Origin: an uncultured Anaerolineales bacterium
GTDB lineage: Bacteria; Chloroflexota; Anaerolineae; B4-G1
DNA length: 43,955 nt
Assembly (NCBI GenBank): GCA_964509655.1
Contig: CAZDYW010000002.1
Location: forward strand, 1-43,955
Direction: 5' to 3'
This document shows, piece after piece, positions 5,094-13,783 of this stretch. The position numbers and the translations under genes are program-made. Position 1 is the first letter of the stretch; the number at the start of each line of letters is the position of its first letter. The notes below the pieces were generated by a model. That model made no database searches and was not told where the DNA came from. It saw only the letters and a program-made list of their open reading frames with translations.

Positions 5094-5119
5094 CTACTCC
5101 TCCTATCTCTAGCAGGTGA

Positions 5120-7180
5120 TCAATTCACCGGCTCGACGCGCACGGCACAGACCTTGTACTCAGGAATCTTGGCGATGGGATCAAGCGCCGCGTTGGTCAG
5201 CGCGTTGGCCGCCGCCTCGACGTAGTGGAAGGGAATGAAGACTACACCGGGCCGAATGCCCGTCGTAAGGCGCACGCTCAACTCGATCTCACCGCGTCGA
5301 CTGGCAACTCGCACCCGCTCCGCGCCATTCAATCCGATGCCAGCCGCATCGTCAGGATGGAGCTCGACGTAAGGCTCCGGTGCCTCCTGTTCTAGCTTCT
5401 CCGAGCGCCGAGTCATCGTGCCGGTATGCCAATGGAACATCATCCGGCCTGTGGTCAGGATGAGAGGATACTCATCGTCCGGCAACTCCACGGCCTCTTT
5501 GAACTCGATAGCATGGAAGTGACCCAGTCCCCGACTGAACATGCCTTTATGCAGATAAGGTGTGCCAGCGTGCTCCTCTGTCGGCACCGGCCATTGGAGA
5601 GAGCCTTCCCTATCCAGCCGCTCGAACGACACTCCGCCGTAGATGGGAGTGACTGCGGCGATCTCCTCCATCACTTCCTCCGGCGACTGGAAGTCAAACC
5701 CCCGAGCTCCTATCCGCTCGGCTAATTGGCAAAGAATCTCCCAATCCGGTTTAGATTCTCCCAATGGCTCGATCGCTTTGCGCACTCGCTGGACGCGCCG
5801 ATCGGTGCCGGTGAAGGTGCCTTCCTTCTCAGCAAACGAAGAACCAGGCAGGACGACATCGGCCAGTTCAGCAGTCTCGGTAAGGAAAATGTCCTGCACC
5901 ACGAGGAAATCAACTTCTTCTAGGCACTCGCGCACGTGGTTTACATCGGGATCGGAGAGCATGGGATTTTCCGCCATCACATAAAGGGCACGAGTGCTCC
6001 CATCCTCGGCTCCCCCTATCATGGCCGTCACCGTCTTTCCCACCTCGTCGGAGAGATTCTTGACGTTCCATACCTGCTCGAACTTCTCCTTGATCTCAGG
6101 CACTGTGACGGCCTGGTATCCGGAGTAGACGTTGGGCAGGCCCCCCAGATCGCAGGCGCCCTGGACATTGTTCTGGCCACGCAGGGGATTGACGCCGCCA
6201 CCAGGGATGCCCATATTGCCAGTGAGCATAGCCAGGTTTGCACATGACTTCACGTTATCGGTGCCAGTGGTATGTTGGGTGATGCCCATCGCGTAGAGGA
6301 TGGCCGCAGGTTTATTCTGCGCGTAAATCCGCGCTGCCTCTCGCAGGTCATCGGCGGGAATACCGCTGATCTCCTCCACCCGCTCTGGTGTATATTCGCT
6401 CACAACCTCACGGAGTTCATCGAGGCCCTCAGTCCGATCCTCTATGAAATCCTCATCATGCAACCCTTCGCTGATGATGACGTTCATCATACCGTTGATC
6501 CAGGCCACATTCGTGCCAGGGCGGGGTTGCAAGTACAGATCGGCCATACGCGCGATGTGTATCTTGCGCGGGTCCACGACGACGATTTTGGCCCCGCGCT
6601 CCTTGGCCTCCATCACGTGGCTGGCGACCAAAGGATGGGCCTCAGAGGTGTTGGAACCGGTGATGAGGAAACACTCGGTGTGTTCGCTGAACTCCGGGAC
6701 GGAGTTGGTCATCGCTCCACTGCCAAACGCGGCGACCAGACCGGCCACCGTGGGAGCGTGTCAGAGGCGTGCGCAGTGATCGACGTTGTTCGTCTTGAAC
6801 ACTGCGCGGGAAAGCTTCTGGATGAGATAGTTCTCCTCGTTGGTGCATTTGGCCGAGGCTAAGAAACTAATGCTATCAGAGCCATACTCATCAGAAATGG
6901 TAGTCAATCGCTCCGCCACCAATCCCAGCGCTTCCTCCCATGTTGCCTCCTCAAGTTGGGCCGAGGGACCATCCCCGCGCCGAATGAGAGGGGTCTTAAG
7001 CCGATCAGGGTGATTGACAAAAGCATCGACGTTCCAGCCCTTGATGCACAGCTGACCGCGACTGATCGGATGTTCCTTATCGGGCAGAACTCCTATGATT
7101 TCTCCATCGAGCACCTGAAAATAAATCCCGCACCCACACCCACAATAAACACAGGTGGTGAGGACGTTTCGGTATTCCAT
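5120..7180 (-). CDS. fdhA: formate dehydrogenase catalytic (alpha) subunit, molybdopterin/tungstopterin, selenocysteine-containing (UGA at 6761..6763 read as Sec)
   Basis: ORFs 6761..7225 and 5120..6748 are in one frame (2061 nt = 687 codons from ATG 7180). Read-through gives [32 protein letters not shown], matching the FdhF/FdhA Sec block. N-terminal 4Fe-4S motif CVYCGCGCG...C. No twin-arginine signal. ATG 7180 has GGGAGG 5 nt upstream and follows the TAG of the upstream gene, so the 7225 start is rejected. Confidence 0.85.
6713..6763 (-). promoter_or_regulatory. Sec UGA plus candidate bacterial SECIS hairpin of fdhA
   Basis: UGA at 6763..6761. After an 11-nt spacer there is an upper stem GGUGGCC/GGUCGCC (6749..6743 pairs with 6737..6731; 7 bp including 2 G-U) with apical loop GGUCU (6742..6738). 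A lower 6-bp stem CGCUCC/GGAGCG (6758..6753 with 6718..6713) is also present. Confidence 0.6.
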
Positions 7181-7190
7181 AAATGCCTCC

Positions 7191-8021
7191 CTACTCCAAC
7201 CTCGAAAGTATCGGCGCCTCTCCAAAAGTCAGAGAGAGCGGTGGTGCATCCTCAATATCGGCCCCAGGCTCGTATCCCACCAAAGTTCCTACGTCCCGTC
7301 GGATCAAGTCATAGAGGACTGTCAATGGAATATGGGCCGGGCAGACCAACTCACATTGGCGGCAAGCGACACAGCGACTGGACATATGCATCGCCCGGAC
7401 TAGATGGAACATTGGGAAGGGGGGAGCCAACACACCCGGTTCCACCCACAAGGGGTCTTCCAAAGCGCAGGCTTCACAGAAGCATTCCGGGCAAATGTTG
7501 CGACACCCATAACACTTGATACACTTCAAGAACTGTTCTTGCCAGAATTCCCGCCGCTCCGCAAGCGACATCTCCTCATATTCCGCGACTAGAGGATTAG
7601 GCGGCCCACTTTCAACCGGCGTTCCGATCAACTCGGCTTGAGGCCAAGGGTCCAATTTAGGCGCAGGATCGGCACAATGACATTCTTCAGCTTCCTCCTC
7701 GGTACAAGCCACCCCTAGTAAGTAGAGCCTATCAGGATCGACTTGTGCTCGCTTGGCCATCTCCACTAATGCGCGGGCGTCACATCCGCGGGCCACAACA
7801 CCTAATTGAGCCTCTGGATAGCGTTTCTGCAAAGCGGAAATGATAAGGCCCATCGCGTAGCGGGGCTCCAGGACCAACTCAGAAGTGTCATCCCCTTCTT
7901 GGAAAAGGTAGGGCGCAGTGCCAACCTCTGTCTTCCGTAGCGCCAAAACGCCATCCAGTTCTTTGAGTTTCTCCGCCACGTGGGCGCGAAGTTCTTCCAT
8001 CAATGTACTTCGTTCGGTCAT
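7191..8021 (-). CDS. 4Fe-4S dicluster protein, putative electron-transfer subunit between FdhA and MvhD/HdrA (FrhB/FdhB- or AsrA-like, family uncertain)
   Basis: Two Cys clusters: CIKCYGCRNICPECFCEAC and CVACRQCELVCP. The N-terminal part contains GVVARGCDARALVEMAK...LLGVAC, reminiscent of FrhB/FdhB-type folds. ATG 8021 has GAGGAG upstream and is preferred. The track start 8072 is a TTG without a good SD. Confidence 0.55.
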   Translation of the reverse strand: MTERSTLMEELRAHVAEKLKELDGVLALRKTEVGTAPYLFQEGDDTSELVLEPRYAMGLIISALQKRYPEAQLGVVARGCDARALVEMAKRAQVDPDRLYLLGVACTEEEAEECHCADPAPKLDPWPQAELIGTPVESGPPNPLVAEYEEMSLAERREFWQEQFLKCIKCYGCRNICPECFCEACALEDPLWVEPGVLAPPFPMFHLVRAMHMSSRCVACRQCELVCPAHIPLTVLYDLIRRDVGTLVGYEPGADIEDAPPLSLTFGEAPILSRLE

Positions 8022-8080
8022 CCTCAGCTCCTCTATGTCGGCATATTGGTGTATTGGCGACCAATCTACCAATTACCAGC

Positions 8081-8503
8081 CTACCGGTCTACCATTTCGT
8101 CGGCGATTGGTCCCAGCGCCCTCACCTTCTCCACGAATTCCTTCGTCACTTTGGCGAACTTCGGCGCCTCGGCCGACGAGACCCAGTCCAGCACGAACCG
8201 GTCAGGGTGAACGCCGACGTACTTCAACAGGTTATGCACCAACGGCATACGCTTTGCCGTGCGGTGATTGCCGTCGATGTAGTGGCAATCGCCGATGTGA
8301 CAACCCAGCACCATCACGCCGTCTGCGCCAGAGCGGAAGGCTCGCAGCACCATCTCCGGCGACACCCGTCCCGAGCACATCACACGGATGGGCAAGACGT
8401 TGGCCGGTGATTGCATCCGGGCCACACCAGCGTTATCCGCCCCGGCATAGGAGCACCAATTACACAAGAAAGCAACAACTCTCGGTTCGAAATCTTCACT
8501 CAT
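8081..8503 (-). CDS. mvhD: MvhD/FlpD-family protein (methyl-viologen-reducing hydrogenase delta subunit-like, 2Fe-2S)
   Basis: 140 aa. Contains VAFLCNWCSYAGADNAG ... IRVMCSGRV ... GADGVMVLGCHIGDCHY, the hallmark FlpD/MvhD pattern. Confidence 0.85.
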   Translation of the reverse strand: MSEDFEPRVVAFLCNWCSYAGADNAGVARMQSPANVLPIRVMCSGRVSPEMVLRAFRSGADGVMVLGCHIGDCHYIDGNHRTAKRMPLVHNLLKYVGVHPDRFVLDWVSSAEAPKFAKVTKEFVEKVRALGPIADEMVDR

Positions 8504-8571: not shown

Positions 8572-10530
8572 TCATCCCACCATGGCCAACAGGCCATCGA
8601 TCTGGGCCACGATTTCCTGATCGGTGAAGTGCAGTTCCGTGACAGCGCCAGAGGGGCAGGTGGCCACGCAAGTGCCACATCCATGACAAAGGGCAGCATT
8701 GACCTCTGCCTTCCCATCGCTGTTTCGGTCAATGGCAGAATAGGGGCAGGATTTTATGCACTCGCCACACCCCACACAAGCTTCCGTCATCACCTCGGCG
8801 ACGATGGGGGAAATAGCAACCTCTCCCTTATTGAAAATTTTGACAGCTTCCTGCGCAGCCGCTCCCGCGTGGGCCACTGTATCGGGAACATCGCGCGGCC
8901 CCTGGCAACAGCCGGCCAGGAAGACGCCAGCGGTGCTGGTCTCAACCGGGCGCAGCTTAGGATGAGCCTCAGCGAACCAGCCATCTGGCGTGCGCCCCAG
9001 CCCGAAGAGAGATGCTACTTTATTGGAATCAGCATAAGGCTCGATAGCAGAGGCAAGAATGACCATATCCACGTCGGCGATGACTAATCTGCCCAGGTCA
9101 GCGTCCTCGCCCTTGACGCGCAGCTTATCATTGGGCAGCACCTCAACCTCGGCGCCGCGACCGCGCACAAAGGTGACTCCTTCCTCCTGTACCCGCTCGT
9201 AGAACTCTTCGTAGGCCTTACCGAAAGCTCGCATGTCCATATAGAAATCATAGACTTCGGCGCCTGTCTTATCGCGCACCTGGTGGGCATGCTTGAGCGA
9301 GTACATGCAGCAGAAACGGGAGCAGTATTCGTGGGCATTCTCATCCCGGCTACCCACGCAGTGGATAATGGCGACGTTCTCCGGAACCTCTCCCTCGGCG
9401 GTCACGATCTCCCCGCCGGTAGGGCCGCTGGCATTGGTGATGCGCTCAAATTGCAAACCGGTGATGATATTAGGGGATTCGCCGTAGGAATACTGCGGGA
9501 GATTCGTGGGGTCCCACATCTCGAAGCCGGTGGCTATGACGATAGCTCCCACCTCCACGTCGAGCAGTTCATCCTCTTGCTCATAATCAACTGCGCCTGT
9601 GGGGCAGACTCTGGCGCATAAGCCACAACGTCCATCCCGCTGGAAGTAGATGCAGTGATCTGTGTCAATCACCGGCACGTTGGGGATGGCCTGAGAGAAA
9701 GGACGATAAATGGCCTTTCGCTTACCCATCCCGGCCTCATAATCGGTGTCGATAACCTTGGTAGGACATTTCTCCTGACAGAGGCCACAACCGGTGCAAA
9801 GATCCTCGTCCACATACCGGGCATGCTTGCGGATACGGGCTTGGAAATTACCTATGTAACCGGAGATTTCCTCGACCTCACTATAGGTTAAAAGCTCAAT
9901 CTTGGGATGCCGACCGGCATCCATCATTTTGGGGCCGAGGATTCAGGTGCTACAGTCAAGTGTGGGGAAGGTCTTATCGAGCTGAGCCATCCGCCCGCCA
10001 ATGGAGGGCTCTTTTTCCACCAGATAGACTTGGTAGCCAGAATCGGCGATGGAGAGCGCAGCCTGTATGCCCGCGATGCCGCCTCCGACCACGAGCGCGG
10101 CCTCGGAGACCGGCTCCTGGCGGGGCTCCAAAGGTTTATGATAGGCCACTCGCGCTACCGCTGACCGTACCAGGCGCTTCGCCTTCTCCGTAGCTTTCTC
10201 CTTGTCCTTGATCACCCAGGAGACGTGCTCGCGGATGTTGGCCATTTCGAAGAAGTAGGGGTTAAGCCCAGCGCCAGCCAGCGCCCGCTGGAAGGTGGGC
10301 TCATGCATTCGAGGGGTACAAGAGGCCACCACCACCCGCTCCAGGTCCAGATCACGGATATCCTCTTGGATCATCTCTTGTCCGGGTTCGGAGCAAGTGT
10401 ATTTATGCTGCCGAGCAATGACCACGCCAGGCAGTTCAGCGGCCATCTCCACCACGGATGATACGTCCACCGTAGCCGCGATGTTGACGCCACACTCACA
10501 GATGTAGACTCCAATGCGAGGTTCTTCCAT
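8572..10530 (-). CDS. hdrA: heterodisulfide reductase subunit A-like flavoprotein, selenocysteine-containing (UGA at 9943..9945 read as Sec)
   Basis: ORFs 9943..10530 and 8572..9927 share one frame (1959 nt = 653 codons). Read-through gives [27 protein letters not shown]. Other features: N-terminal [15 protein letters not shown] motif [13 protein letters not shown], inserted ferredoxin ([21 protein letters not shown]), and C-terminal ferredoxin ([24 protein letters not shown]). Confidence 0.85.
9905..9945 (-). promoter_or_regulatory. Sec UGA plus candidate bacterial SECIS hairpin of hdrA
   Basis: UGA at 9945..9943. Twenty nt downstream there is a perfect 7-bp stem GGAUGCC/GGCAUCC (9922..9916 with 9911..9905) and a 4-nt apical loop GGUC (9915..9912). 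Confidence 0.7.
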
Positions 10531-10571: not shown

Positions 10572-11438
10572 TTACAGAAAATCACTCAACGCCGGTCTCA
10601 CTGACACGACGTGCCGCTTGAACAACAACTTATCCTCCGATAACCCAAAGGCCAATCCGATCAGTTGAGGCAAGAAGAGGATTGGGACATGTAATTCCTG
10701 GTTCATCACGCGCGAGGCCTTACCCTGATAGCTGTCCAGGTTCATATGGCACATCGGACAGACAGTCGAGACGCAATCGGCAGGCTGACATTTCGCCAGT
10801 ATCTCCCCTGCCATGTGATGGCCGACCCTGGGCTTGGTCATCATCAATGAAGTGCCACAGCAAGATGCCTCTCGAGGATGATGATGCACTTCAGCACCCA
10901 ATGCCTCTAAGATGGCGACCATTGAAGTAGGCTTCTCATCATCGTCGAAGGCGCTATAAGGGCGAACGGTCTGGCAACCGTAGTAGGGAGCGACGGTCAA
11001 GCCCTCTAGCGGGCGCTGCACCCGCTCGGCGTAATCCTCCGGGCTGAAATCGTTCGCCAGCACATCCATCAAATGGCGCGACTTGACAGTATTGCGATAG
11101 CTCAAACCCTCCACCTCTAACGCCTTGTTTACTTTTTCCAGAAGCTTTGGATCATCGGAGAGAGCTTGTGAGGTACGCCGAAAGTTGGTGTAGCAAGCAC
11201 TGCAAACAGCGAGCATGTCCGAGGTGTCATCAGCTTGCTCTGCCAAAGCCAGGTTACGAGCTGGAAGCACGATGCCCAGGAGATCACTGATCACCGGAGC
11301 CGCGCTGGCCCCACAGCAGGTCCAATCTTCCAATTCCTCCACCTCAGCCCCCAAGGCCTTCAGCACGGCAAGTGTCGAAGCCTTGTACTCCAGAGCAGAA
11401 GCGTCCGCTGAACAGCCGGGGTAAAAAAGATACTTCAT
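10572..11438 (-). CDS. hdrB: heterodisulfide reductase subunit B-like (two CCG domains)
   Basis: 288 aa. Two complete Cys patterns: YPGC...WTCCG...VCSAC and YYGC...ASCCG...VCPMC. The start overlaps the hdrC stop (ATGA). Confidence 0.85.
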
Positions 11439-12013
11439 TGCTGCGCCTCCAGTTCTGCCACACGCTCAAACAGCGGCTCTAAACGTCCCTCACCGCCCAG
11501 CTTAGGCATTTCTGGGTAAGCCTTTCCACGACTAACCAGGGTGATTCCAAGACCGGCGAAGCCCAGAGCACTCAAAGGATTAGTAGCCAAGAAGAAACGT
11601 ACCATAAACTCCATCTCCCGCATACGTCCATAGCGGCGCACAATGTCGACAAAGGTACGATAGAAGCCAACGCTATCCTTGGATGCAGCGATTCTTTGCT
11701 CAATCGCCATCTCTTTAAGGCGGGTGATGGTCTCGGTGAGAGGAATACCACGGGGGCAACGCACTTGGCACTGATAACAAAGGCTGCATAGCCACATTGT
11801 CTTGCTGCGCAGCACCTCGTCTGTCAGGCCCAACTGTACCATGCGCCACATCTTGCGGGGGCTGATGTCCATCGCTGGAGCTGCCGGGCAGGATGCGGTG
11901 CAAGTACCACACTGAATACAGCGACGGAGAAGTTCTCCATTCTCGATGAGGTGATCTGCAAAGGCGGGATCACGTTTCGCCGTCGTTAAGTTCACAACCT
12001 CAGCAGTCGCCAA
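11435..12013 (-). CDS. hdrC: heterodisulfide reductase subunit C-like (2x 4Fe-4S)
   Basis: 192 aa. CIQCGTCTASCP and CSLCYQCQVRCP. TTG start with AGGAGG 6 nt upstream. Confidence 0.8.
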   Translation of the reverse strand: MATAEVVNLTTAKRDPAFADHLIENGELLRRCIQCGTCTASCPAAPAMDISPRKMWRMVQLGLTDEVLRSKTMWLCSLCYQCQVRCPRGIPLTETITRLKEMAIEQRIAASKDSVGFYRTFVDIVRRYGRMREMEFMVRFFLATNPLSALGFAGLGITLVSRGKAYPEMPKLGGEGRLEPLFERVAELEAQQ

Positions 12014-12264: not shown

Positions 12265-13707
12265 TCACCCTGCCTTAATTTTTGCACTCCACCACAGAGC
12301 CTCTAACTCATCCTCGGTCAACTTCCTCATATCTCGTCCTTGCTCAAGAGCGGCTTGTTCCATATGACGGAAACGATGTGCGAAACGAGCGTTGGCTTTA
12401 CGCAAAGCGGTCTCCGCATCCAGACCCAGCCAGCGGGCCCAGTTGACTATGGCGAACAATAGATCGCCCAACTCGGCCTCCTTTTCCTCCGGTGAGATGG
12501 CCGATTTCAACTCGCCGATTTCCTCATGCACCTTCTCAACAACCCCACCCACCTCGCTCCAATCGAATCCCACGCGGGCCGCACGACGACTGTAGGTATC
12601 GGCTTGCTGCAATGCAGGCAGAGCATCGGGCACGCCATCGAGCGCCGAACTCCCTTCCCCCCTCTCCTCACGCTTCAGTTCCTCCCAATGGAGCAGTACC
12701 TCATTAGATCCTTTGACCGCCTGATCCCCCCAAACGTGTGGGTGACGATGCTTGAGCTTGACGTCGATGCCAGAGATTACTTGCGCCATTTGAAATTCAC
12801 CCGCCTCTGTCGCAATCTGGGTGTGAAGTAGCACTTGCAACAAGAGATCGCCCAGTTCTTCCCTCAGCGCTGACACGTCGTCGAGATCAATGGCGGACAC
12901 GGTCTCGTAAGCCTCCTCCAACAACGCGGATCGCAAGCTCGCGTGCGTCTGCTCGCGATCCCAAGGGCAGCCATCCGGGGCCCTAAGGTGGGCGACGGTT
13001 TCTTGCAAGCCCTCGAAGCTACTAACGCCCGGCAATGGTGGCACGTAAAGTGTGGTCAAGTGAGCGATGTTCCTTTGATGATCAAGCTCATAGAGGGGCA
13101 AGCGGACGATGCGCTGATCTGGGCTTCCAGCCGCGTGCACTAATACAACCTCGTGGTCGTCCGGATATTGATTCATCAAAGTGAGTTTGACATCGGTGGC
13201 GAGGTCTCTTCCATAGAGCTGGCCCACCAAAGCTGGCAGATCGGAATTCAGTAAAGGGTGATGAAGAAGCGCCAGCTCGATAGCGTCCTGTATCTGCAAG
13301 CCCTCCAAGGCATCTATGCCCAGAGAGGCGAGTGTCGGGGTCACGAAGCTCATCCCCTCCACTATGCGCACCTCAAGGTCAAATTTCTCAGCACTGGTCA
13401 AGATCAGCTTCACTGTGGCTTCCCCCACAAAAGGGTGACCTGGCACAGCATAGATAACACCTTGAGGACGTTGACCCAAACTCAATATCTCGGCAGCAAT
13501 CGCTTCGTAGACTTCCGAGAAGTTATCCGCTTTCTCGTAGAGGTTATCAAAGGAGTGTACTGTAAGATTGGAAGGTAACTCAGCTACTGTGGGATGATGC
13601 TCCGTGCGCAACCAGATTTCATCGGCACTTTCTAAAACGGCCCATGCCTCCCGCGTCAAGTGATGTAGTGCACCAGGCCCAAGACCGAGGATAGTGATCA
13701 CGTTCAT
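12265..13707 (-). CDS. mazG: tetrapyrrole-methylase-like domain fused to MazG nucleoside-triphosphate pyrophosphohydrolase (YabN-like)
   Basis: N-terminus ITILGLGPG (TP_methylase fold). C-terminal MazG repeats (EEAYETVSAIDLDD...EELGDLLLQV and EEIGELKSA...ELGDLLFAIVNWARW). ATG 13707 has GGAGG upstream. The longer track start 13764 would run through the rpsI terminator. Confidence 0.8.
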   Translation of the reverse strand: MNVITILGLGPGALHHLTREAWAVLESADEIWLRTEHHPTVAELPSNLTVHSFDNLYEKADNFSEVYEAIAAEILSLGQRPQGVIYAVPGHPFVGEATVKLILTSAEKFDLEVRIVEGMSFVTPTLASLGIDALEGLQIQDAIELALLHHPLLNSDLPALVGQLYGRDLATDVKLTLMNQYPDDHEVVLVHAAGSPDQRIVRLPLYELDHQRNIAHLTTLYVPPLPGVSSFEGLQETVAHLRAPDGCPWDREQTHASLRSALLEEAYETVSAIDLDDVSALREELGDLLLQVLLHTQIATEAGEFQMAQVISGIDVKLKHRHPHVWGDQAVKGSNEVLLHWEELKREERGEGSSALDGVPDALPALQQADTYSRRAARVGFDWSEVGGVVEKVHEEIGELKSAISPEEKEAELGDLLFAIVNWARWLGLDAETALRKANARFAHRFRHMEQAALEQGRDMRKLTEDELEALWWSAKIKAG

Positions 13708-13749
13708 ATAAACCTCCACAAAAACAGCGAGCGACTGTGCAGCTGGCGT

Positions 13750-13783
13750 ATACAAAAAGGGCAAGACATTTCTGTCTTGCCCT
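13750..13783 (-). terminator. intrinsic terminator after rpsI (end of ribosomal super-operon)
   Basis: Minus-strand RNA GGGCAAGACA-GAAA-UGUCUUGCCC (perfect 10-bp stem, 13782..13759) followed by UUUUUGU. Confidence 0.75.

Follow-up and report, generated by a model that had tools for sequence, protein, structure and literature searches.

Analysis of the DNA stretch presented here (43,955 nucleotides; the window) raised the question of whether two open reading frames (ORFs), 6761..7225 and 5120..6748, represent two genes or a single gene, fdhA, that contains a selenocysteine (Sec) codon. The initial annotation had described the two ORFs as in frame and parted by a TGA, and the coordinates check out. 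Both ORFs lie on the minus strand in one frame, and the TGA at 6761-6763, which is codon 140 of fdhA, is their sole separator. The features of the gene are as follows.

5120..7180, minus strand: complete fdhA coding sequence, 686 codons including Sec140, ending with the stop codon TGA at 5120-5122 (from the translation)
7186..7191, minus strand: Shine-Dalgarno sequence GGGAGG, 5 nt before the ATG at 7180, read directly from the sequence
6761..6763, minus strand: in-frame UGA, codon 140, putatively read as Sec; aligned to Sec140 of E. coli FdhH and to X (Sec) of 9t1s_L
6746..6748, minus strand: GTG from which ORF finders begin a 542-aa "second gene", an artefact; located in the 5' arm of the hairpin
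6730..6750, minus strand: predicted SECIS apical stem-loop; 8-bp stem in the window, conserved 6-bp core (6743-6748 with 6732-6737), loop GGUCU (6738-6742)

The ATG at 7180 is most likely the true start of fdhA, because it is preceded by the Shine-Dalgarno sequence and because homologues align from residue 1-4. Analysis of the fdhA product with Pfam revealed the domains Molybdop_Fe4S4 (1e-14), Molybdopterin (1.3e-77), and Molydop_binding (5.8e-35) in this order, all above the curated cut-offs. Searching the Protein Data Bank (PDB) revealed full-length matches to solved formate dehydrogenases (9t1s_L, 9e-239; 7bkb_D, 1e-208; 1aa6_A, 1e-180; and 7qv7_S). The domain architecture is also that of E. 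coli FdhF (FdhH), to which FdhA can be aligned over the full length, although with an identity of only 42%. This alignment revealed the four cysteines of the [4Fe-4S] cluster, C10, C13, C17, and C45 (corresponding to C8, C11, C15, and C42 in E. coli), and the conserved active-site arginine, R334 in RGQNNVQG (corresponding to R333). The sequence thus identifies fdhA as the gene for the catalytic subunit of a cytoplasmic Mo/W-bis-PGD formate dehydrogenase, with formate oxidation or CO2 reduction as the predicted reaction. The enzymes differ in their partners, which are hydrogenase 3 in E. coli and Hdr/MvhD in the window.

The UGA is located exactly in the catalytic Sec/Cys column. It shows no offset from E. 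coli Sec140 or from the Sec of 9t1s_L, and it is followed by His141, as in U140-H141 of E. coli. The FdhF context to which the read-through product had initially been likened (CARV-U-HGPSVAGL..GNGAMSN) is correct, and in both genes the UGA occupies codon 140.

To follow this codon through related genes, a set of 80 related genome loci was used, which comprised 41 distinct sequences with TGA (Sec forms) and 39 with TGC or TGT (Cys forms) in the UGA column. In the 41 TGA-bearing loci, the frames are intact on both sides of the TGA. Their sources are Anaerolineae/Thermoflexales, Syntrophaceae, Desulfobacterium N47, Desulfuromonadaceae, WOR-3, and Clostridia. Chloroflexota lineages (Anaerolineae, Thermoflexales, and relatives) account for about 28 of the 41 Sec sequences, and the Sec-versus-Cys statistics given below ignore phylogeny. 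Cys orthologues reach up to 77% identity with FdhA.

The hairpin downstream of the UGA begins 11 nt past this codon and consists of the arms GGUGGCC and GGUCGCC, which an extra C-G pair extends to 8 bp, and the loop GGUCU. The distance from the UGA to the loop is 18 nt in all TGA forms, and the stem length among them is 6 to 8 bp. In bacterial SECIS elements, the apical loop lies 16 to 37 nt from the UGA (PMC10778597), and the spacing in fdhA is within this range. The loop GGUCU was found in all 41 Sec homologues and in 4 of the 39 Cys homologues. The glycine codon at position +7 is GGT in 41/41 Sec forms compared to 6/39 Cys forms. Third-position entropy at codons +5 to +9 amounts to 0 to 0.44 bit in the Sec forms and 1.8 to 1.9 bit in the Cys forms; this drop is limited to these codons of the Sec forms, and the two sets show equal variability in the flanking codons. 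The mean minimum free energy of the 21-mer hairpin is -12.4 kcal/mol for Sec and -4.6 kcal/mol for Cys sequences (p = 1.8e-13, Mann-Whitney test, which ignores phylogeny). The six core pairs are paired in 240 of 240 cells in the Sec forms, with compensatory changes on both sides at three pairs, whereas in the Cys forms core pair 18-30 is unpaired in 23/39 and pair 21-27 in 21/39. RNAalifold, run unsupervised, returned exactly the apical hairpin. These alignments indicate that the hairpin is conserved specifically with the UGA across phyla, at the nucleotide level, and that it decays in Cys orthologues.

Folding of the single sequence provided modest evidence for a hairpin beyond chance. The 25-nt apical hairpin alone gave -13.8 kcal/mol (z = -2.0) and was matched by 8 of 200 shuffled sequences. 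The fold of the 81 nt after the UGA (z = -0.38) was uninformative in this GC-rich coding sequence. It is therefore the comparative evidence from the homologue alignments, and not the single-sequence folds, which shows that the upper hairpin is not a product of chance.

The initial annotation had described a two-tier SECIS-like structure, and only its upper tier stood up to this comparison. The proposed lower stem has the following position.

6713..6758, minus strand: proposed lower stem, CGCUCC (6753-6758) with GGAGCG (6713-6718), which can pair in the window sequence

Of the cells of this 6-bp stem, 60% are paired in the Sec homologues compared to 74% in the Cys homologues, its third positions are unconstrained, and it is not part of the RNAalifold consensus. 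As a conserved feature it was rejected on both the Sec and the Cys alignments, and it is probably incidental. At gathering thresholds, no Rfam family was found, whether in the window or among 10 related Sec loci. Below threshold, RF01989 (SECIS_3), whose consensus covers the same FdhA codons, aligned end to end with the window (51.2 bits, E = 1.7e-11 on 151 nt; gathering score, 63), but most of the model's lower helix is left without pairing there. Two Cys orthologues used as controls scored 45.4 and 24.5 bits. Since a Cys orthologue reaches 45.4 bits, the match mostly reflects coding conservation, and it was dropped as SECIS evidence for lack of discrimination.

The closest known element for comparison is the SECIS of E. 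coli fdhF. It likewise lies within the ORF, with GGUCUG formed from the homologous Gly-Leu codons at an identical distance of 18 nt after the UGA. The E. coli element contains a bulged U and a tetraloop closed by an A-U pair, features also found in the Rfam SECIS_2 consensus. The window hairpin has neither of them and instead forms a perfect GC-rich 8-bp helix with a 5-nt loop. The lower stem of the 40-nt E. coli element lacks a conserved counterpart here. Archaeal SECIS elements, in contrast, are located in untranslated regions and not in the ORF (PMC10778597).

Taken together, the position of the UGA and the constraint on the hairpin make it very probable that fdhA is one gene, with UGA 140 decoded as Sec by means of a bacterial-type SECIS within the ORF. 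According to this prediction, codon 140 would supply a Sec that serves as a ligand to the metal, and its decoding would be directed from within the reading frame. The SECIS would be a GC-rich hairpin of 6 to 8 bp made by the Thr-Val-Ala-Gly-Leu-Val-Ala codons, with the GGUCU loop beginning 18 nt past the UGA. By analogy with E. coli and Moorella, SelB carrying Sec-tRNA(Sec) would bind this loop and bring Sec to the ribosome with the UGA in the A site.

The window and related loci were also searched for the Sec machinery. No selA, selB, selD, or tRNA-Sec gene was found in either the 44-kb window or the fetched Anaerolineae loci, and tRNA-Sec scans gave no hit in the window plus 42 related loci. 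When E. coli SelA, SelB, and SelD served as tblastn queries against the window and all loci, EF-Tu, a SelB paralogue, was the only hit in the window, and selA together with selD was detected in one Clostridia locus (L072). NCBIfam analysis of 20 other ORFs of the window revealed no selenium genes. A Sec-containing formate dehydrogenase and SelB have been described in Anaerolineales single-cell genomes (PMC4959059). Because no sel gene or tRNA-Sec gene was found in the window or the fetched Anaerolineae loci, the Sec-decoding trait of the source organism is counted as assumed; its genome would presumably contain selABCD. The organism, with its formate-linked Hdr module, probably uses Sec.

Several other explanations of the interrupted frame were weighed. 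If the UGA were a nonsense mutation, it would be a real premature stop in a decaying fdhA, a reading that fits the splitting of the gene by ORF finders and in public gene calls as well as the lack of Sec machinery in the window. Such decay is hard to reconcile with a TGA that 41 distinct homologues of several phyla share in this column, their frames intact and their amino acids strongly conserved on either side, with the placement of the UGA exactly at the catalytic residue, or with the nucleotide-level constraint on the hairpin downstream. Neither relaxed constraint nor frameshifts were found around the UGA in the relatives. This pattern of conservation effectively refutes a pseudogene, the probability of which appears negligible. 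A sequencing or assembly error that turned a Cys codon into TGA is conceivable in that TGC and TGT are one base away and close Cys orthologues exist. However, the TGA is present in independent assemblies from many samples, hdrA of the same operon has a second TGA in its Sec/Cys column, and the TGA of fdhA goes together with the SECIS-specific synonymous codons GGT CTG, which are atypical of Cys forms. A misread base is accordingly extremely improbable.

Genome-wide reassignment of UGA to a standard amino acid such as Trp or Gly would likewise yield read-through, with nothing specific in its favor. Yet UGA ends 10 of the 38 ORFs in the window, fdhA itself among them, and conserved genes, for example those of EF-Tu, EF-G, and rpoC, are as long as expected and free of internal UGA. 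In-frame UGAs were noticed only at the two Sec/Cys columns of fdhA and hdrA, the other ORFs having been viewed unsystematically. The chance of such a reassignment is minute. A naturally split enzyme, with a 139-residue Fe-S protein ending at the UGA and a 542-residue protein starting from GTG 6748, could draw on the in-frame GTG that follows 12 nt past the UGA. No Shine-Dalgarno sequence was found upstream of this GTG, however, and the split would cost the enzyme its metal-ligating residue and His141. Moreover, the GTG is the conserved Val codon of the hairpin arm and is present in 39 of the 41 Sec forms. A split enzyme is thus highly unlikely.

With fdhA read as a single selenoprotein gene, the second ORF proves to be an artefact of the split, in agreement with the initial annotation, which had noted that its GTG lies inside the hairpin. 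Among the best 120 database homologues, 69 are the same truncated fragment, starting at this Val or at the next Met. The public gene calls of a 96%-identical relative split fdhA likewise, and an exact look-up of the 542-aa fragment of the window returned no record. A UGA read as Sec with a SECIS downstream is a well-known arrangement that gene callers routinely misannotate. The finding is mainly of use for annotation, in which a single selenoprotein gene should replace the two ORFs, and the same holds for hdrA. Since this split recurs in both the public calls and these homologues, selenium dependence and formate metabolism are under-reported in Anaerolineae.

Analysis of the genomic neighborhood of fdhA revealed the following features.

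7191..8072, minus strand: FdhB-like iron-sulfur subunit, short; 293-aa ORF as listed, start codon uncertain
8081..8503, minus strand: mvhD-like gene; Pfam FlpD (6.6e-53), NCBIfam VhuD / HdrA2 C-terminal region
8572..10530, minus strand: hdrA, 652 codons; in-frame UGA at 9943-9945 in LDCST-U-ILGPK
9905-9922, minus strand: hdrA hairpin; folded stem of 7 bp that includes GAUGCC/GGCAUC; loop GGUC at 27 nt downstream of the UGA
10572-11438, minus strand: hdrB
11435-12013, minus strand: hdrC; together with hdrB (joint span 10572..12013) assigned by Pfam CCG domains / 4Fe-4S dicluster

The genes hdrC, hdrB, hdrA, mvhD, fdhB-like, and fdhA are adjacent and co-oriented, and their order is the same in the 96%-identical relative. 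The HdrA protein matched 8rvu_a and 5odc_A in the PDB (about 1e-230). The FdhB-like protein matched 9t1s_M (1e-35), 7bkb_E, and 8rvu_E in two stretches. FdhA, the FdhB-like protein, and HdrA all had their best structural matches among the archaeal Fdh-Hdr enzymes (7BKB from Methanospirillum hungatei and the F420-dependent formate dehydrogenase 9T1S). Because about 115 middle residues of archaeal FdhB are absent from the protein encoded here, F420 dependence of the window complex seems unlikely. The hdrCBA-mvhD-fdhB-fdhA operon is predicted to encode a formate-oxidizing (or CO2-reducing) flavin-based electron-bifurcating complex of the Hdr type.

The HdrA subunit would also be a selenoprotein, with Sec insertion by a similar SECIS with a GGUC loop. 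A second Sec codon in the operon had been part of the initial annotation and gained support from the relatives, in which the hdrA UGA is conserved and switches together with that of fdhA. The hdrA hairpin folds with -12.3 kcal/mol (z = -3.0), and comparison of the two hairpins revealed GGUC in both loops. The UGA and the hairpin are kept in 14 neighboring hdrA copies, with a compensatory change from C-G to U-A in L022 and L023. All 14 neighboring copies that accompany a Sec fdhA have Sec in hdrA; fdhA and hdrA are both Sec in 11 loci and both Cys in one relative, L018. It is possible, but rather doubtful, that this reflects an Anaerolineae clade in which FdhA and HdrA of the Hdr-Fdh module are obligate selenoproteins, with Sec gained and lost together and a shared GCC-GGUC loop motif. 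If the coupling reflected a functional need for Sec in HdrA and were not simply due to the Sec machinery being available, natural Sec/Cys pairs, for instance the window and L018, could be used to probe the role of Sec beside the bifurcating flavin/Fe-S site of HdrA.

Operons of the type HdrBCA-MvhD-FdhBA with Sec-containing FdhA have been reported for deep-sea Chloroflexi and Desulfobacula toluolica by Sewell et al. 2017 (PMC5736913). The window resembles these operons in gene order and content, the Sec FdhA, the short Fe-S FdhB, and the phylum. It differs from them in genome and habitat, the nearest relative of the window being from a microbial-mat metagenome. Sec in HdrA, present here, is not mentioned in the consulted sections of that paper. 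The occurrence of Sec-FdhA in Hdr-Fdh operons of Chloroflexi is thus already published, and the fdhA finding is of a known kind and of low novelty. A likely Sec user with such a module is relevant to the anaerobic flow of carbon and electrons through mats and sediments, with no new principle involved.

Translation of the minus strand from position 7180 to 5120 revealed a gene, fdhA, encoding a formate dehydrogenase catalytic subunit and interrupted by one in-frame UGA. Its domain order in Pfam was Molybdop_Fe4S4, Molybdopterin and Molydop_binding. In a PDB search, the best solved relatives were all formate dehydrogenases (FDH): the F420-dependent enzyme 9t1s_L (9e-239), E. coli FdhH 1aa6_A (1e-180), HDCR FdhF 7qv7_S and the Hdr-associated FDH 7bkb_D. 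The gene, its operon partners and the hairpins discussed here are as follows.

11435-12013, minus strand: hdrC
10572-11438, minus strand: hdrB
8572-10530, minus strand: hdrA
9943-9945, minus strand: in-frame UGA of hdrA, context LDCST-*-ILGPK
9905-9922, minus strand: hairpin of hdrA, 7 bp as folded, containing GAUGCC/GGCAUC, loop GGUC
8081-8503, minus strand: mvhD
7191-8072, minus strand: short FdhB-like Fe-S protein
7180-5120, minus strand: fdhA, 686 codons by translation, with one internal stop
7180, minus strand: probable fdhA start ATG, with GGGAGG upstream at 7186-7191
6761-6763, minus strand: internal TGA of fdhA, codon 140
6746-6748, minus strand: GTG opening the second ORF, within the hairpin's 5' arm
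6730-6750, minus strand: apical hairpin of fdhA, 8 bp (GGUGGCC/GGUCGCC and a further C-G pair), loop GGUCU

The initial annotation had joined ORFs 6761..7225 and 5120..6748 across the TGA; both share one frame, in which this TGA is the sole internal stop. The second ORF was correctly regarded as an artefact of the split, as its GTG lies within the hairpin arm and no Shine-Dalgarno sequence was found upstream of it. The same split recurs in public data. Among the 120 best protein-database clusters, 69 were fragments of 529 to 562 residues starting at Val or Met right after the UGA, and the 51 full-length clusters were all Cys forms with at most 77% identity to the window protein. For a relative at 96% identity, recovered from a microbial-mat metagenome, public gene calls list fdhA as two pieces (139 + 543 residues) and likewise hdrA (195 + 450 residues). 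Selenoproteins of Anaerolineae MAGs are thus systematically mis-annotated by such splitting (protein matches P0004-P0120; loci L084/L085), an error that the present finding corrects.

Aligned with the fdhF gene of E. coli (NC_000913), fdhA showed 42% identity over the full length, with the UGA at codon 140 in both genes. E. coli His141, Arg333 (R334 in the window) and the four [4Fe-4S] cysteines were all aligned in the window protein, and the UGA column matched the X (Sec) of 9t1s_L. The UGA therefore sits on the catalytic Sec/Cys column without offset, and the E. coli Sec context given in the initial annotation proved accurate. The comparison set comprised 80 loci from a scan of species-representative genomes, the closest being Anaerolineae/Anaerolineales MAGs (L001 at 96% identity). 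The active-site column held TGA in 41 distinct sequences and TGC or TGT in 39. TGA was present in every Chloroflexota-labelled locus covering the site (66-96% identity) and also in Syntrophaceae/Smithella, Desulfobacterium N47, a Desulfuromonadaceae MAG, WOR-3 and a Clostridia MAG. Neither a nonsense mutation nor a base-calling error at codon 140 can explain this pattern, because TGA recurs in a single catalytic column in several phyla and both flanks are under purifying selection. UGA terminates 10 of the 38 window ORFs, fdhA itself among them, and is thus a normal stop in this genome.

The proposed GGUGGCC/GGUCGCC stem with loop GGUCU is present, begins 11 nt past the UGA and folds at -13.8 kcal/mol (z = -2.0). 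Its sequence is constrained in a manner linked to the UGA. The loop GGUCU occurred in 41/41 Sec vs 4/39 Cys sequences, and the same held for Val codon +5 as GTG (39/41 vs 10/39), Gly codon +7 as GGT (41/41 vs 6/39) and Leu codon +8 as CTG (38/41 vs 13/39), counted from the UGA. Third-position entropy in Sec forms fell to 0-0.44 bit, a drop confined to codons +5 to +9, where Cys forms had 1.8-1.9 bit; most flanking multi-codon positions had 1.3-1.9 bit. The mean folding energy of the 21-nt hairpin was -12.4 kcal/mol for Sec vs -4.6 kcal/mol for Cys forms (Mann-Whitney p = 1.8e-13, uncorrected for phylogeny). All six core pairs (columns 16-21 with 27-32) were paired in every Sec sequence, with both-sides changes at pair 18-30 (G-C to A-U and C-G), pair 19-29 (A-U) and pair 21-27 (G-C twice, U-A once), and all five whole-structure measures exceeded all or nearly all of 500 shuffles. 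With the same structure imposed on the Cys alignment, pairs 18-30 and 21-27 were each open in a majority of sequences, and no measure exceeded the shuffles. The stem is hence kept in Sec forms and degraded in Cys forms. Unsupervised RNAalifold on the Sec alignment returned exactly the 6-bp, 5-nt-loop hairpin and nothing else. Two closely related loci, otherwise similar here, read GTG GCC GGT CTG (L077, TGA) vs GTA GCC GGC TTG (L078, TGC).

The two-tier structure originally proposed is upheld in its apical tier only. CGCUCC (6753-6758) and GGAGCG (6713-6718) do flank the apical hairpin, so the lower stem can form in the window sequence; of the cells of this stem (columns 6-11 with 46-51), 60% were paired in the Sec alignment vs 74% in the Cys alignment, third positions of its codons were unconstrained and the RNAalifold consensus of the Sec alignment omitted it. 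Nothing in these alignments suggests selection on the lower stem. The conserved element matches in size the E. coli minimal apical hairpin (Liu et al. 1998, cited by PMC4607533).

Comparison of E. coli fdhF (UGA CAC GGC CCA UCG GUU GCA GGU CUG CAC) with window fdhA (UGA CAC GCU CCC ACG GUG GCC GGU CUG GUC) revealed GGUCUG, encoded by homologous Gly-Leu codons, 18 nt from the UGA in both. The apical GCCGGUCUGGC presumably also fits the Moorella thermoacetica fdhA hairpin co-crystallised with SelB. The 18 nt fall inside the bacterial SECIS range of 16-37 nt (PMC10778597). At gathering thresholds, Rfam gave no match for the window or 10 related Sec loci. At a permissive threshold, SECIS_3 (RF01989) matched the window end to end with 51.2 bits (gathering score 63). 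Cys orthologues scored 45.4 (L018) and 24.5 bits (the more distant L034); the score thus reflects mostly conserved coding sequence, and the match was discarded as SECIS evidence.

The second UGA of the operon, in hdrA, occupies the Cys/Sec position within the DCSxC/U-ILxPK motif. Its hairpin (-12.3 kcal/mol, z = -3.0) has a loop beginning 27 nt past the UGA, and comparison of the two hairpins revealed a common heptamer, GCCGGUC (5' arm and loop). UGA and hairpin were conserved in 14/14 fetched hdrA copies adjoining a Sec-fdhA, with a compensatory C-G to U-A change in L022 and L023. L018 is the only locus with a Cys-fdhA in a Chloroflexi-like operon; its hdrA is also Cys, with the loop changed to GGCC. 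A genome-level Sec trait would be expected to produce such joint gain or loss. L018 (8001-10043; hdrA at ~4900) belongs to a MAG labelled Thermoguttaceae (Planctomycetota) and carries an all-Cys, Anaerolineae-like hdr-fdh operon at 69% identity. Its fdhA keeps most of the hairpin (loop GGUUU, -12.5 kcal/mol), and the operon could have switched recently from Sec to Cys, have been transferred horizontally or have been misbinned. Some Anaerolineae contigs encode a pair of paralogues less than 10 kb apart, both accompanied by a GGUC(U) hairpin: Sec-fdhA in L003 (~2337, ~8008) and Sec-hdrA in L004 (~984, ~5275).

Sec-containing FdhA is a classic bacterial selenoprotein, and the bacterial Sec insertion pathway is well established. 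By analogy with this pathway (summarised in PMC10778597), SelB with GTP and Sec-tRNA(Sec) would bind the in-frame hairpin at its apical loop with the UGA in the A site, outcompete release factor 2 and insert Sec, which would ligate the active-site Mo or W. The comparisons show what the gene encodes, where its UGA lies and that constraint on the hairpin goes with the UGA; we infer SelB binding and Sec insertion at the fdhA UGA. It is very probable that the 6730-6750 hairpin directs UGA-140 to be read as Sec. The earlier reading of this UGA as Sec is supported, except for the lower tier, which lacks comparative support. The window contained no tRNA genes, and tblastn with E. coli SelA, SelB and SelD matched only EF-Tu there. 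Among all loci, tblastn placed selA and selD beside fdhA only in the Clostridia MAG locus L072 (1214-4782), a few kb upstream of its Sec-fdhA. SelB and Sec-FDH have been reported in Anaerolineales single-cell genomes (PMC4959059).

The co-oriented cluster runs hdrC, hdrB, hdrA, mvhD, the FdhB-like gene and, last, fdhA. PMC5736913 describes an HdrBCA-MvhD-FdhBA operon with Sec-FdhA from deep-sea Chloroflexi and Desulfobacula, and window fdhA is a further instance of this known arrangement. The FdhB-like protein, which had no clear Pfam or NCBIfam family match, is a truncated form of FdhB: it aligns with residues ~38-124 and ~242-378 of the archaeal F420-dependent FdhB 9t1s_M and lacks the ~115 residues between them. 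It probably acts solely as an Fe-S wire rather than as an F420/FAD site. A gap of 26 nt (5094-5119) separates fdhA from a downstream rubrerythrin gene; in the 96%-identical relative, a DUF3800 gene is inserted between the two (L084/L085, 11639-12271). The remaining window is a bacterial ribosomal-protein/RNA polymerase/EF-Tu/EF-G region with two-component regulators. Directly upstream of the operon lies a fused tetrapyrrole-methylase and MazG gene (12265-13764, minus strand, 499 aa), and the operon adjoins an rpsI-rplM-truA-rplQ-rpoA ribosomal cluster, a synteny kept in the closest relative.
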